A stretch of 32,000 nucleotides of DNA from Candidatus Heimdallarchaeota archaeon (GTDB lineage Archaea > Asgardarchaeota > Heimdallarchaeia > Heimdallarchaeales > Kariarchaeaceae). The notes under the pieces are model-generated. The model saw only the letters and a list, made by a program, of their open reading frames with translations. It was not told where the DNA came from and did no database searches. The position numbers and the translations under genes are program-made. This document shows positions 11,087 through 16,300 of this stretch, one piece after another; the stretch's first letter is position 1; each line of letters starts with the position of its first letter. The stretch covers positions 270,001-302,000 of the forward strand of contig JASBSB010000003.1 in the NCBI GenBank assembly GCA_030149205.1. Direction: 5' to 3'.

Positions 11087-11151
11087 GGCAATGATGAAAA
11101 AACCCCAGAAGGAGTCAATAGACGATGAAATCCACACGACAATTCTGAGCC
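11087..11151 (+). ncRNA. Box C/D guide sRNA (candidate 2'-O-methylation guide)
   Basis: Terminal stem GGC(11087-89)/GCC(11149-51), perfect C box ATGATGA (11091-97), perfect D box CTGA (11145-48), C'-like ACGATGA (11122-28), degenerate D' (CAGA 11106-09 or AGGA 11110-13). About 65 nt, intergenic. Confidence 0.8.
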
Positions 11152-11159
11152 ATTATACT

Positions 11160-11489
11160 TTACCCAAATAACTGTTCTATCCCTTCGATCTCTTTCTTCA
11201 AACTATGAAGAGTTCCAGATTTCGAAATAATTTTTACAAACTGATCTTGGAAAGCCAAGATAAACCCACTTTCAACCTCTGAAATCTGTTCAAGATTTGA
11301 TTGTAATATGATGAGTTGCCCTTTTATTGTATCTTCTAAGCTTATAAGAGTTAGATTAGACTTTGCTAGGGTAATATCCCCGTACAAATTTTGAATTTTC
11401 AGTCGAATCAGTTCAAGAAGGTTCTTTTTTGAAAAATTTCCAGGGTAAATAAACCCCAACAAGTACCTTTTTTTGGAATGCTTTATCAT
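11160..11489 (-). CDS. rnp2: RNase P protein subunit Pop5/Rpp14
   Basis: N-terminal KKRY motif, C-terminal SGTLHSLK, 109 aa, directly after Rpp30 with a 4-nt overlap; conserved operon position. Confidence 0.82.
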   Translation of the reverse strand: MIKHSKKRYLLGFIYPGNFSKKNLLELIRLKIQNLYGDITLAKSNLTLISLEDTIKGQLIILQSNLEQISEVESGFILAFQDQFVKIISKSGTLHSLKKEIEGIEQLFG

Positions 11490-12124
11490 AATTTCACCTC
11501 ATCTATCCCAACATATTCAGATTTCCTCTTAGTTTGATTATTTAAGACTCTTTGTTGAACTTTAGCAGAAGACGTTAATGTGGGAGGAAGTCCAAATGTC
11601 TTTGCAACTGATTGTAAATCTTTGTAGCTTCTGATTAAATTTAAATCAACAACATTTAAGTAAAGAAAACATGGAACCTTACAGAAATTTACCTCGCGGA
11701 TCAGTCTAAAAAATTCCTTTGCTTTCCATTGATTGACCTCTGTGTAAAAGGGTGACAAATCTATACCAATTTGTATCCCTTGCCTTTTGAGTTTTTTTAA
11801 AAATTCTTGCTTGAAGTAAGATTTGTTGATGCCAAGTTCAAAGGTAACTATATCGATCAAACTAAAATCAAATTGTCCCAATTTGATAGAATTTTTATTT
11901 ATTAGTAAATTTATAAGATCTACTCGTTTTCTAACTTTCATTATTTTATTTGTCAACTGCTTCATCGACTGTGTATCAGAACTAATAGTCATTAAGGAGG
12001 TTATATTGGAGGATTTCTCAAATTTTGATAATTCATAAATAAAAGAATCGGTCTTAGAAAGAATCTTTAGAATATTGGAATCCATTTTTTGAATGGTTGC
12101 AGGAAGGAGTGTTAGATTCTTCAT
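11486..12124 (-). CDS. rnp3: RNase P protein subunit Rpp30 (divergent)
   Basis: C-terminal LIRSYKDLQSVAKTFGL and NNQTKRKSEYVG resemble the Rpp30 LRSPRDLxAL and RNRxK motifs; lies between COG1325 and Pop5. Confidence 0.72.
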   Translation of the reverse strand: MKNLTLLPATIQKMDSNILKILSKTDSFIYELSKFEKSSNITSLMTISSDTQSMKQLTNKIMKVRKRVDLINLLINKNSIKLGQFDFSLIDIVTFELGINKSYFKQEFLKKLKRQGIQIGIDLSPFYTEVNQWKAKEFFRLIREVNFCKVPCFLYLNVVDLNLIRSYKDLQSVAKTFGLPPTLTSSAKVQQRVLNNQTKRKSEYVGIDEVKL

Positions 12125-12127
12125 TGT

Positions 12128-12538
12128 TCATCTCAAAAACTTACTGAGCTCTGTCTTGATATCATCTATTTCATTCTTATTATATGTTGTGAATTTTATT
12201 TCCATTCTTATAATATCTGATGTTTCACTTAAGCGTATTGGATTTTCTACCTCAAAGAAAGCGAATTTATCTAATTTTAAAATTAGCTTCCTGTCCGATT
12301 CGATGAAGAACTTGCCAAAGTTTTCGAAAATGTTGGATTTATCGGTTATTGATAATCTATTCAAGACTTTTTCGAATAATTTCTTTGCTTTGTTCTTATG
12401 AAAATGAACTGTCCAGATCTGGATTGAGTCTCCAAACTGACCAAAAACAGTCTCCTTGCTAGCGATAGATTGTATACCGAATTCATTTTCAAGCAACTCA
12501 TCGATTTTCTCTAGTAAAATAGTAGCATCTTCAGTCAC
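12128..12538 (-). CDS. Predicted RNA-binding protein, COG1325/DUF54 family (exosome superoperon-associated)
   Basis: VFGQFGDSI and LILKLDKFAF...DIIRMEIKF match the family pattern GHYGNPI...LYLRxDKQ...DxIxVxIK; canonical position between rpl15e and rpp30. Confidence 0.72.
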   Translation of the reverse strand: MTEDATILLEKIDELLENEFGIQSIASKETVFGQFGDSIQIWTVHFHKNKAKKLFEKVLNRLSITDKSNIFENFGKFFIESDRKLILKLDKFAFFEVENPIRLSETSDIIRMEIKFTTYNKNEIDDIKTELSKFLR

Positions 12539-12606
12539 GTATGTGAAAAAAATTAATTTTGCATAACTGATTTGGATAATATCAACTCATTATTTGTTGT
12601 GTATAT

Positions 12607-13191
12607 CTATTTAAGTCTTCTTCCATGTCTTCTTAGACTTGGTCTGGCTTTCTCTGCACCAAATCCTTTCCTGTTCAATCCTCTTGATCTCTTTCCAGCA
12701 CTAGTTAAGCCTCTAAATACCCTTCTGGTATTATTCTTCTTGAAGATCCAAGAAATTCTATGGTCATTGACAATTGCAGGATGTACGGGATCAACGAGAA
12801 TTATTTCAAACCATTTGCTCCTTCCATCTTGTCCCACCCAATAGGAACCTAAAACCTCTAAGTTTGTGTATTTTCTAGATGCTCTGGTTTCAGCAATCCA
12901 TCGTAGGTTCCTTCCTGATGTCTTATCCACCGCAAGATTTACTCCACGACTCCTACCTCTTGTAGGTCTAGACATCCTTCTCGCACCACGTCTAACTTTT
13001 GCTCGAACTATCACATATCCAGGTTTGGCCTTATATCCCAACGATCTGGCTCTGTCGATTCTTAAAGGGCGGTTTACCCTAAGGATCGTAGGTTCTCTTC
13101 TCCATTGAATCAAACGTGGTCTTTGGATCTCTTTGAATTCATTTGAATTTCTATTTCGCCAAAAATCTCTAACATTTTTGTATAGGTTCAT
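12607..13191 (-). CDS. rpl15e: 50S ribosomal protein L15e
   Basis: IDRARSLGYKAKPGYVIVR, NLEVLGSYWVGQDG, RVFRGLTSAGKRSRGL, RPSLR; SD GAGGTGA. Confidence 0.97.
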   Translation of the reverse strand: MNLYKNVRDFWRNRNSNEFKEIQRPRLIQWRREPTILRVNRPLRIDRARSLGYKAKPGYVIVRAKVRRGARRMSRPTRGRSRGVNLAVDKTSGRNLRWIAETRASRKYTNLEVLGSYWVGQDGRSKWFEIILVDPVHPAIVNDHRISWIFKKNNTRRVFRGLTSAGKRSRGLNRKGFGAEKARPSLRRHGRRLK

Positions 13192-13205
13192 TTTTTACTT
13201 CACCT

Positions 13206-13231
13206 CTGTGTCACACATTGATCATACACAG
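13206..13231 (-). promoter_or_regulatory. Canonical kink-turn in the rpl15e 5' leader (candidate L7Ae binding site)
   Basis: Minus strand reads CTGTG-TAT-GATCA-ATG-TGTGA-CACAG: 5-bp C-stem, 3-nt bulge, tandem G-A/A-G, U-U, C-G, A-U, 3-nt loop. Last G overlaps the SD GAGGTGA; TTTAATAA TATA-like box at 13254-13261. Confidence 0.72.
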
Positions 13232-13323
13232 TTAATTTACATCAGATTAATTGTTATTAAAAATAAACTATCGTGTCACTAAAAATAATTAAAATTGTTT
13301 ATATGAACTATAGAGATTTCAAA

Positions 13324-16300
13324 TTACTTTCTTAACTTCTTTCTCACAATCCATGCAACAGCAACAAAGGCAAGGAAAACAGGTAGAGGAGAAATGGGGA
13401 TAAATCCTCCACCTGCAGATGGACTTGTTGGTTTTGGAAAGTTCGGTAAAACTTCAACTATCGTCTCATGAACTGTCGATTTTCCAAAATCATCAGTTGC
13501 AATAAGTTTAAGAACAAAGATACCTACTTTTTTGGGAGAAATTTGCGTTAAATAGGTGAACTCTGTATTATCCCAACTCATTTTCTTGGGGGAAGTAAGA
13601 TTTCCTGAAATTTGAATTGATTTTGGTGCAAAGCTACTTAATGAGAGGACAATTGTTTGAGTTGAACCATTAAGTACAGCAATGTGAGTTGGTCCGATTA
13701 CCTTTGGTCCTTTGAAGAAGTCCTGGGGGGTGAATTCTGGAGTATAATCGACCAAATTTTCAATTACCTGTTGGCTTTCATAGGAACTTGAATATAGCAA
13801 TGAGGTGGATAAGTACATTATATACCCTGAACCAATTTTCTTTGCTAGTACAGAAATTTCAGAGAATTGATTTTGGTCTCCTACAAGTAAATAATCATTA
13901 GTTCCATATCCTGAAAAATAGCCAGTTGGATTATCAAAAGGTGTTACACTCACTCGATTTGGTGTGAAGAATAGCTTTGCATTTGGTTCCAGAATTCTTA
14001 CTGGATGAGGGGTCACATATTGATTGTAAACTAGACCACCCACCAATGTAATAAGATTGGGTTTTGTAGAGTTATAATACCCCGACCCCTCGTTTATTAC
14101 ATATTTAATGGAACCACCATTTTCAGCAACCTTGAGCAAATCAGAGTTATATTTTGAAAAATTTAAATTGGGTGTCCCATAATAGAAGTTTGGTCTCAAC
14201 AGATAAATTTCCGAGAATTCAGTAATGTCCACTGAAGAGGTAGGGTCAAAAGGATTTATACGAACTATCTCTACATTCGAATCTCTTCGTAAAGCTGATT
14301 CAAAGTTATATGAATAGGAACTTGAAATTAATAGAATTCGCTTAACAACCCTAACAAACCCACTGACAAAGTTATCATCAAGAAAAGTCTCACTCCCAAC
14401 TTTTGCGAGATTACCTGTTAGCAAGAATGAGCTTAAAGTTGTGGCTCTGTATTTGAATACCATAATCAGTGTTCCTCCAGCTTTGATAGAGGGTACTTGA
14501 ATTGTAGTAAGTTCTGAATTTACTTTAACGTCTAATGTTGTTATAGGAGAGGATCTGCTTCCAGTGTTCGTTACAATGAAATAATAGTTTGTGGTTGTGT
14601 TTATTCCAGCATTTGATCCCCATAGGTTCATGTGTAGATTATCAGTTGGTACAGGTAATACCCCAGGTCCATAAATTGCGTACACCTTATTTGGAGAGCC
14701 ACCGTATGTATAGTTCGTAGATACTCCTTGCTCTAAAAGCAATCCAGTTAATTGGTCGTAGATTGAATAAACTCCACCATATGGTGATATCCCTTCCCAG
14801 GTTGACCGAATACTTCCTTGATAATTATATGAACCAGCTTTGTCAATAGTAGTATAATCATTTGTCCATCCTATGCCCTCTCCATCAGGTATTGCAAAAG
14901 GAAAAATGGAACCAAAATCTGTTTTAAATGTCAAAATATTGAAAAGGTAAGTATTTGTAAATGAAAATGAAGAGTTCAAAATGTTACCTATCAATCTAAA
15001 TTCTACATAAATTGGGTCAATAGTTGATTTGAATTCAAAACTATAGTTTGCAAATATGCCACCTTGCCTACCAATTACACCGTTAAGTGAGAACCATATC
15101 TTTTTGTTAAGAGGTACGTTTAACCTTGACTGGAGTGCCTTTATTGAAAATTCATAGAAATTATTGGCTAGATTAGTCTCATTAAGGTATTTCGTAGTTG
15201 AAAAATTAAAGTTATGAATGCCTTTAACAGATGCATTCCATTGGTATTGAACTATAACTCCTCTTCCAGCCTGAACATCGGTTGTACCTGTTAGGACTAT
15301 TGTTTTATTTATAGAGAGTGAGTAACTAACAGATGTTGCATTTTTCAATCCAAAATTTAAAATCATAAATTTAAAAGTTGAATTAGAATTAACAAGTTTG
15401 TAGGCTGAAGGTGTCTTAACGGGATGAACTCCAATTTCATTTTCAGCAATCTTTGTTGAAATTTTTGTAAACTTTATACTTGTGTTGCTTAAGAAATTGA
15501 AACTATCTTTGCTTATTTCTAATGCATCATTCGAACCCGCACCTTTATTTAATCCAATAGAGGTTGATCTACTTTGAGTTGCACTTAAATAATTAAAAAC
15601 TATTTCATTTTTATTGTTAAGAACTACTTGGAAGGAAACCAATCCTGCAACGTTAAAGCTTCGAAGATCTTTCCATTGGAATATTACATGGTCTTTGTAG
15701 GATTTAAAGGAGAAATGAGTAGTATTTATGTCTCTGTACGAAATATAAAATGTCGGATCAAAAAAAGGTGCAATTATGTAAGGATACCGATTCGTAGGAA
15801 ACTTAACAGACTCATAAGAAGAAACAAAAACAGGGTCATAAACTGGAGATAAAGCACCTGATGGTGACATAAACATAATGTCACTCTTATACCCATAGAG
15901 ATCAAATACAAAAGGAAGTTTTATAGGACCAAAGCCACCGGATCCTAGAGTGAAATTAGTTGCCCCACTTGAGGCATCACTCCATGTAGTTGATGTAGCA
16001 CTATACTCATAAGTAGATGTGGGTAGATCAAAGATCATGGAGTTATTGTTATTGTTAGTGTTGATCTCACCAGTAACGGGGTCAACAGTAAGTGTATAGT
16101 TAAAGGTTCCACCTCCAGTTGAAATCAGAGTATAATTTACAGAATAAATTGAACCTGTAGACAACGAGGGAATAGTTTTTTGTTTAACGACTTTACCATT
16201 TTCAAATAGTCTGACTATTAAGTTAGATTCTGTTGTTGTTCCAAAATTTAACACAGATCCTCTAATTATTATCGGGGACAATGCACTCGCATCAATGACC

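Follow-up and report, generated by a model that had tools for sequence, protein, structure and literature searches.

A predicted protein-binding k-turn at the 5' end of the rpl15e mRNA in a Heimdallarchaeial family and its possible relation to the archaeal eL15 leader

Known k-turn leaders, Kt-15 and the eL15 leader

The protein L7Ae binds both simple and complex kink-turns (k-turns). Its affinity for simple k-turns lies in the pM range (PMC4382518), and a G at position L3 lowers the affinity of L7Ae about 100-fold (PMC3553981). Messenger RNA leaders in which a k-turn adjoins the Shine-Dalgarno (SD) sequence are repressed by L7Ae (Daume 2017, PMC5539422; Huang 2019, PMC6298567). A published rule holds that a k-turn does not fold without protein when 3b is not C, 3n is not G and the -1b:-1n pair is not C:G (PMC6298567). 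In the accessible part of the Daume 2017 supplements, L15 is not mentioned.

In the ribosome, Kt-15 of 23S rRNA is a complex k-turn held jointly by L7Ae and eL15; the two proteins together make the pocket that takes up its extruded U, as related in the part of PMC1808587 that cites Klein 2001. Without L7Ae, Kt-15 does not fold (PMC4382518). A leader of the gene for eL15 has also been described, as Rfam family RF03144 (the eL15-Euryarchaeota leader). Eckert and Weinberg (2020, PMC7247131) proposed eL15 as its ligand because rpl15e was the only regulated gene. The text of that article reports an incomplete likeness of the leader to the bulged-G module and refers neither to kink-turns nor to L7Ae.

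The hairpin considered here lies upstream of rpl15e in a 32,000-nucleotide stretch of DNA from a Heimdallarchaeota archaeon (hereafter the window). We propose that it is a protein-binding k-turn predicted to form the 5' end of the rpl15e mRNA, that it represents a simple-k-turn variant of a Kt-15 decoy, and that it would serve regulation by L7Ae together with eL15. We assign this reading a probability of roughly 0.55. An initial annotation of the locus had suggested that such a leader was undescribed for rpl15e. The leader itself was in fact already known as RF03144, but in the text of PMC7247131 it is not treated as a k-turn and L7Ae is not named. What is new, as judged from the sequences compared, is a lineage-specific k-turn variant of a known predicted r-leader, together with the reading of the whole leader family as a mimic of Kt-15.

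The rpl15e hairpin and its conservation in the window's family

Direct reading of the minus strand from 13231 to 13206 gives a 26-base hairpin, CUGUG/UAU/GA/UCA/AUG/UGU/GA/CACAG (Table 1). A Watson-Crick C helix of 5 bp is followed by a 3-nt bulge, the pairs G1b.A1n and A2b.G2n, a U.U juxtaposition at 3b.3n, and the pairs C-G (4b-4n) and A-U (5b-5n), which close the 3-nt loop AUG. The features of a simple standard k-turn in the Lilley nomenclature (a 3-nt bulge, tandem G.A and A.G pairs, and a Watson-Crick C helix) are all present, and by its sequence the hairpin is a consensus simple k-turn with a predicted kink. The sequence determinants of an L7Ae site are present as well: L3 is U, G1b and G2n are in place, and L2-L3 (AU) and both GA are invariant in the family. 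The anatomy agrees base by base with that given in the initial annotation, which had left the strand unstated.

Table 1. Positions of the hairpin elements, promoter, SD sequence and neighbouring genes within the window
Feature	Position	Strand	Basis or remark
k-turn hairpin (K-type rpl15e leader)	13206..13231	-	sequence; covariation in 13 distinct family sequences
C helix of the k-turn hairpin	13231-13227 with 13210-13206	-	
Bulge L1-L3, UAU	13226-13224	-	
G1b A2b	13223-13222	-	
3b-5b, UCA	13221-13219	-	
Loop AUG	13218-13216	-	
5n-3n, UGU	13215-13213	-	
G2n A1n	13212-13211	-	
Predicted archaeal promoter, BRE-like CGATAG then TATA region TTTATTTTTAAT	13256..13274	-	conserved in family
SD sequence, GAGGUGA	13200..13206	-	ends 8 nt before ATG
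rpl15e (eL15, 194 aa)	12607..13191	-	Pfam PF00827, E = 1.3e-70
T7 run within the 68 nt that separate rpl15e from the PF01877 ORF	12546..12552	-	possible archaeal terminator
PF01877 RNA-binding protein	12128-12538	-	Pfam
Rpp30	11486-12124	-	weak Pfam match, 20.3 bits, below the curated cut-off of 35 bits
Pop5	11160-11489	-	Pfam

The hairpin occupies an intergenic region of 132 nt, and the upstream gene on the same strand, which encodes a 1498-aa subtilase, ends at 13324. A TTTTTAAT box at 13263-13256 ends 24 nt before the hairpin, close to the spacing of about 23 nt noted earlier. Its counterpart is conserved in the family as aACGnTAG-TTTTTAAT or TTTAAT, ending 23-27 nt before the core hairpin in 13/13 sequences. 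The TATA position and the usual archaeal spacing predict a transcription start site (TSS) near 13233 +/- 2, which would put the hairpin within about +1 to +4. The k-turn would thus come first in the message, and the SD and the start codon (ATG at 13191) after it, with a predicted leader of ~42 nt. The earlier placement of the hairpin at the predicted mRNA 5' end is thus consistent with the conserved TATA element 23-27 nt upstream. A sequence CUGAUGU is also seen on the minus strand at 13241-13247, 10 nt upstream of the hairpin and upstream of the predicted TSS; it lacks a partner strand and is not conserved in relatives.

The overlap reported between the last base of the hairpin and the SD was confirmed, in that G13206 ends the C helix and also begins GAGGUGA. 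Relatives carry an equivalent GGUGA or GUGAU 0-3 nt after the stem, or partly inside it. The SD lies mostly outside the helix and in most relatives is not sequestered by it. With a k-turn hairpin at the predicted 5' end that abuts the SD, the locus would have the geometry of known L7Ae-repressed leaders.

Taken on its own, the single window sequence is not significant. The 3.3-Mb genome, which has 35% GC, contains 1174 instances of a loose form of the motif (a stem of at least 5 pairs with G-U allowed, NNU, GA, 3-14 nt, GA), and ~1164 are expected under a Markov model. Because the genome-wide count matches chance expectation, single-sequence statistics were dropped. Fold stability showed no excess over shuffled sequences (z = 0.10), which is no surprise given that the stem is short and includes non-canonical pairs. 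The significance of the hairpin comes instead from its conservation in relatives.

To place the hairpin in context, L15e loci were gathered from 40 genomes of the order, 60 genomes of the class, 80 named archaeal contigs and 80 metagenome contigs. The window's own family comprises 15 L15e loci (13 distinct sequences) with an L15e identity of at least 70%. The hairpin is found at the same place in all 15 of these loci. It takes the form C helix, NAU, GA, 7-10 nt, GA, C helix', and ends 7-16 nt before the start codon. We refer to this form as the K type. No real match to it was found in ~144 other distinct L15e upstream regions.

In an alignment of the 13 distinct sequences (A1), 97.3% of cells are paired, compared with 65% in shuffled alignments, and 0/500 shuffles reach the observed value. 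Slid controls of the same alignment give just 13-54% paired cells. Four of the five C-helix pairs change on both sides, with 27 cells changed in this manner. For example, family C helices include CUGUG/CACAG, GCGUG/CACGC, GGGCU/GGCCU and UGGCU/GGCCA, as well as GGUC/GACC, GAGUC/GACUC, GAGCC/GGUUC and GAGCU/GGCUC, and C-helix length in these rpl15e leaders ranges from 5 to 10 bp. The invariant columns are exactly L2-L3 (AU), G1b A2b and G2n A1n. Conservation of the GA pairs in close relatives, on which the initial annotation had staked its proposal, therefore holds for both GA, and the C helix covaries around them. Some relatives are nearly devoid of an NC helix (GAC-GAAAAU-GA) and correspond to k-loops. 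Position 3b is C in 7/13 family sequences; the window has U.U at 3b.3n and G:C at -1b:-1n.

A covariance model built from A1 (R1) has a single significant match in the 3.3-Mb genome, which is the window site (31.3 bits). Three marginal matches (17-19 bits) all fall inside ORFs, and no second genomic copy was found with R1. These findings argue against a regulon.

The genes downstream of rpl15e had been put forward as further targets, with L7Ae coupling eL15 synthesis to that of the RNase P proteins Rpp30 and Pop5. This coupling is not supported, because in two genomes of the same genus (G001, locus L004; G003, locus L003) the PF01877-Rpp30-Pop5 block has the opposite orientation and converges with rpl15e, and the k-turn is kept in both. 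The T7 run in the gap that follows rpl15e in the window, as a possible terminator, likewise argues against tight coupling. On the evidence of gene order, rpl15e is the sole consistent target of the leader and the RNase P genes are probably no more than neighbours. A related suggestion, that two L7Ae sites bracket the operon, also fails, since the second site, a box C/D-like RNA at 11087-11151, lies on the plus strand and thus outside this transcript. That RNA, opposite the pop5 strand, reads GGC, AAUGAUGA ... GAUGAAA ... CUGA, GCC and looks genuine by eye; it has no Rfam match at the gathering score.

The E-type leader, RF03144 and Kt-15

Every sampled archaeon outside the window's family that carries a leader motif has a different hairpin at this spot, which we refer to as the E type. 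It consists of S1, RAUGU, S2, loop, S2', GAA and S1', and lies between the promoter and the SD of rpl15e. It was found in all other Heimdallarchaeial families sampled (f2-f6), in Bathyarchaeia, in Nitrososphaeria and in many DPANN, the outgroups of the window's family being E-type throughout. The sampled rpl15e leaders of Thermoplasmatota and Thermoproteota contain neither the K-type nor the E-type motif. Thermoplasmatota metagenome loci (L120-L191) share a conserved stretch of their own after the TATA box, TTTAAATAA...CUUCCUAUGCUCCUACC.

An alignment of the E type (A2) has 86.8% of cells paired, compared with 54.8% in shuffles (0/500 reach the observed value). Both stems covary, and 86 cells are changed on both sides. 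AUGU never varies, nor does the middle A of GAA, and the flanking G and A are nearly invariant (at least 90%). The E-type hairpin is helix 2 of RF03144. The Rfam model matches Bathyarchaeia loci above its cut-off, as it does the control genomes of Haloferax volcanii and Methanosarcina acetivorans. The same model gives no match in 13100-13400 of the window at E <= 10 and none in 41 genomes of the order at E <= 1, so that neither type is annotated in its Asgard form. A search of the whole window against Rfam at gathering score returned nothing.

The internal-loop nucleotides of RF03144, RAUGU and GAA, are absent from the window hairpin, which has UAUGA and (U)GA instead. An E-type model (R2) does not match the K-type hairpins at E <= 10. 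Its best match among K-type loci (13.6 bits, E = 0.31) falls in the SD and start region of one relative (G002; L002:1479-1506), just after the k-turn; this match is probably due to chance, although it could be a remnant. In the closest relatives (L002, L003) the SD region reads GGGAUGUGA...GAACC. The K type nevertheless appears to be this family's version of the archaeal eL15 leader. Descent from the E type is suggested by position, architecture, phylogenetic distribution and the shared NAUG, and it lacks support from profile matches, given that R2 does not score the K hairpins.

Comparison with the rRNA offers a structural interpretation of both types. In the 23S rRNA of the same genome, helix 15 (~262-296) reads CC-GAA-[UGCCUUUG...CAAAGGUA]-CAU-GU-GG, and the sequence signature and numbering of this segment fit its identification as Kt-15. 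Three relatives (families f1, the window's own, and f2) have the same frame, CC-GAA-[hairpin]-NAU-GU-GG, with bulges GAU or UAU. In Pyrococcus helix 15, the bulged U that L7Ae recognises is at position 292 (PMC3553981); that of the window's genome is at ~290. The E-type leader and Kt-15 agree in their five core nucleotides and in how these are distributed over the two strands (NAU, G, U / G, A, A), although in the leader it is the opposite helix that carries the loop. From the shared core we read the E-type leader as a putative Kt-15 decoy, a reading that we did not find stated in the literature searched.

The window's family departs from this likeness in its leader and not in its rRNA. The rRNA keeps a complex Kt-15, whereas in the leader U is replaced by A at 2b and GAA by NGA. 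The k-turn frame, AU at L2-L3 and the G1b.A1n pair remain common to the two.

Candidate ligands and mechanism

It is plausible that L7Ae binds this leader, most likely together with eL15, and thereby represses translation of rpl15e. L7Ae would fold and bind the k-turn, and surplus eL15 would join it on the leader as it does on Kt-15. The resulting small RNP, adjoining the SD, would block binding of the 30S subunit, and eL15 would in this way be made in proportion to the free rRNA sites available. Any such occlusion must be steric, because the SD is mostly outside the helix. In the window's family, the decoy would have become a standard simple k-turn or k-loop (NAU, GA / GA).

L7Ae is favoured as at least part of the ligand because the k-turn frame, AU at L2-L3 and G1b.A1n are common to the complex and simple forms, and L7Ae accepts both kinds of k-turn. 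Since the leader in this family changed the nucleotides specific to Kt-15 and the rRNA did not, a protein that reads those bases is argued against. Two further observations argue for a signal that depends on eL15. The element is tied to rpl15e everywhere it occurs, and its C helix of 5-10 bp should be far stronger than those of l7ae leaders, such that L7Ae alone would probably be a permanent occupant.

We also consider a broader proposal, which we regard as tentative and somewhat more apt to fail than to hold. Across archaea, the eL15 leader would be a Kt-15 decoy that assembles an L7Ae-eL15-RNA complex on the rpl15e message, with L7Ae acting as a co-repressor of its ribosomal neighbour in addition to itself. 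The Heimdallarchaeial family would then represent a conversion from a complex to a simple k-turn with function kept.

Among the alternatives, regulation by L7Ae alone would have free L7Ae tune eL15 and, via the operon, Rpp30 and Pop5, linking assembly of the ribosome with that of RNase P. All L7Ae determinants are invariant (U at L3, G1b.A1n and A2b.G2n), the change from complex to simple k-turn keeps exactly what L7Ae needs, and the protein has both the affinity and the precedent for such repression (PMC4382518; PMC5539422). However, the leader is tied across archaea to rpl15e and not to the RNase P genes, given their inversion in G001 and G003 and the T7 run after rpl15e. In addition, a C helix of 5-10 bp should make a much stronger site than the 2-3 bp of l7ae leaders, and L7Ae would probably fill a k-turn of this strength at free concentrations still too low to shut off l7ae, which would make the site a poor sensor. 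The initial proposal of L7Ae riboregulation therefore stands in part: the conserved consensus k-turn fits an L7Ae site, but L7Ae as the only sensor is doubtful, and we consider this alternative unlikely.

We rate no higher the classical autogenous scheme put forward for RF03144, with eL15 as the sole regulator. Here eL15 would bind its own leader through the likeness to its rRNA site, and L7Ae would play no part. It would account for rpl15e being the only consistently linked gene (PMC7247131) and for the occurrence of the motif in the genome only before rpl15e, and eL15 does contact Kt-15 in the ribosome. However, the family changed Kt-15-specific nucleotides in its leader (U to A; GAA to NGA) with the rRNA unchanged, and a reader of those bases should lose its site. 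Moreover, a consensus k-turn is unlikely to stay free of L7Ae in a cell full of it, and folding of Kt-15 requires L7Ae (PMC4382518).

Somewhat less likely again is a 5'-terminal hairpin that acts on mRNA stability, or that is bound by another k-turn protein such as L30e, in which case the effect could even be positive. The predicted location at +1 to +4 of the transcript and the exposure of the SD in most relatives are consistent with this possibility, and the genome encodes L30e, a second protein of the L7Ae family (C8:262478-262753). However, in a plain hairpin with a protective role, six unpaired or non-canonical positions would not stay invariant beside a covarying stem, and L30e has no known link to rpl15e. 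Finally, a chance k-turn-like hairpin without function, as the unremarkable frequency of the loose motif in an AT-rich genome and the missing thermodynamic signal might suggest, is very improbable and is already contradicted by the covariation result, since the hairpin stands at the same site in 15/15 family loci, its stem changes are compensatory and its core bases do not vary.

The l7ae leaders of the order were also inspected by eye (L218-L240). They share a conserved k-turn-like hairpin, CC-(U)NAU-GA-[hairpin]-N-GA-GG(UGA), with the SD inside a C helix of 2-3 bp, and these hairpins match published sites of L7Ae autoregulation. The genome's own l7ae lies at G000:C7:202629-202979 on the minus strand, with a leader that extends to ~203060. 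A scan of this leader for a simple k-turn found none; its n strand is set apart by a 15-nt insertion.

Comparison of the preferred L7Ae-eL15 reading with known systems

The reading favoured here has several consequences. It supplies a structural interpretation, a k-turn that copies Kt-15, for a predicted r-leader with neither fold nor ligand settled before, and it extends the eL15 leader in minimal forms to Asgard archaea, DPANN and Bathyarchaeia, of which the Rfam model misses the Asgard ones. If L7Ae takes part, L7Ae riboregulation would extend past its own gene to a protein that shares its rRNA site, and would offer a simple means of balancing two neighbours in ribosome assembly. Orthologous leaders with either a complex or a simple k-turn, alongside an rRNA that stays complex, amount to a natural experiment; if the broader proposal above is true, the kinked shape and not the sequence of Kt-15 would be under selection. 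The hairpin is also a compact natural candidate for an L7Ae switch. Haloferax volcanii and Methanosarcina acetivorans, both carriers of E-type leaders, are genetically tractable.

Of the systems described, the autoregulatory k-turns of l7ae leaders (Daume 2017; Huang, Ashraf and Lilley 2019) are similar in having a short stem-loop with a (G/N)AU bulge and G.A/A.G pairs that adjoins the SD. The U.U at 3b.3n in the window should, by published rules, prevent folding without protein. In contrast with those leaders, the hairpin precedes a different gene, its C helix is 5-10 bp long rather than 2-3 bp, the SD is mostly outside the helix, and several rpl15e relatives have C at 3b and may fold in Mg2+.

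There is also some resemblance to archaeal box C/D RNAs, with AUGAUC on the b strand recalling the C box (RUGAUGA) and GUGA on the n strand recalling the D box (CUGA), and the k-loop relatives with GAC-GAAAAU-GA are similar to C'/D' motifs. Unlike box C/D or C'/D' RNAs, the window hairpin measures 26 nt, lacks both a guide region and a second motif, and belongs to an mRNA leader. Identity as a box C/D sRNA was ruled out by the 3-nt loop and the lack of a guide; Rfam searches around the site at E <= 10 gave noise only, with a sole weak snoRNA match of 16.9 bits against a 55-bit cut-off.

The resemblance to RF03144 includes the position directly upstream of rpl15e, between promoter and SD, with rpl15e as the sole consistent target. 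It also includes an outer stem and a capped inner stem, between which lies an internal loop with 5 nt, AUG among them, on the 5' side and purine-rich sequence on the 3' side. Unlike RF03144 (RAUGU / GAA), the window core is NAUGA / (N)GA, with tandem sheared G.A pairs and thus a simple k-turn. The first hairpin (P1) is missing, and the K type goes undetected by the Rfam model and by R2.

With rRNA Kt-15, the window hairpin shares the NAU bulge with an extruded U expected, the G1b.A1n pair and a predicted k-turn geometry. The strand order is permuted relative to the rRNA, such that the loop caps the NC helix in the leader and the C helix in Kt-15. Finally, unlike the complex Kt-15, the leader has its A2b on the strand of the bulge and its G2n beside A1n, the arrangement of a simple k-turn.
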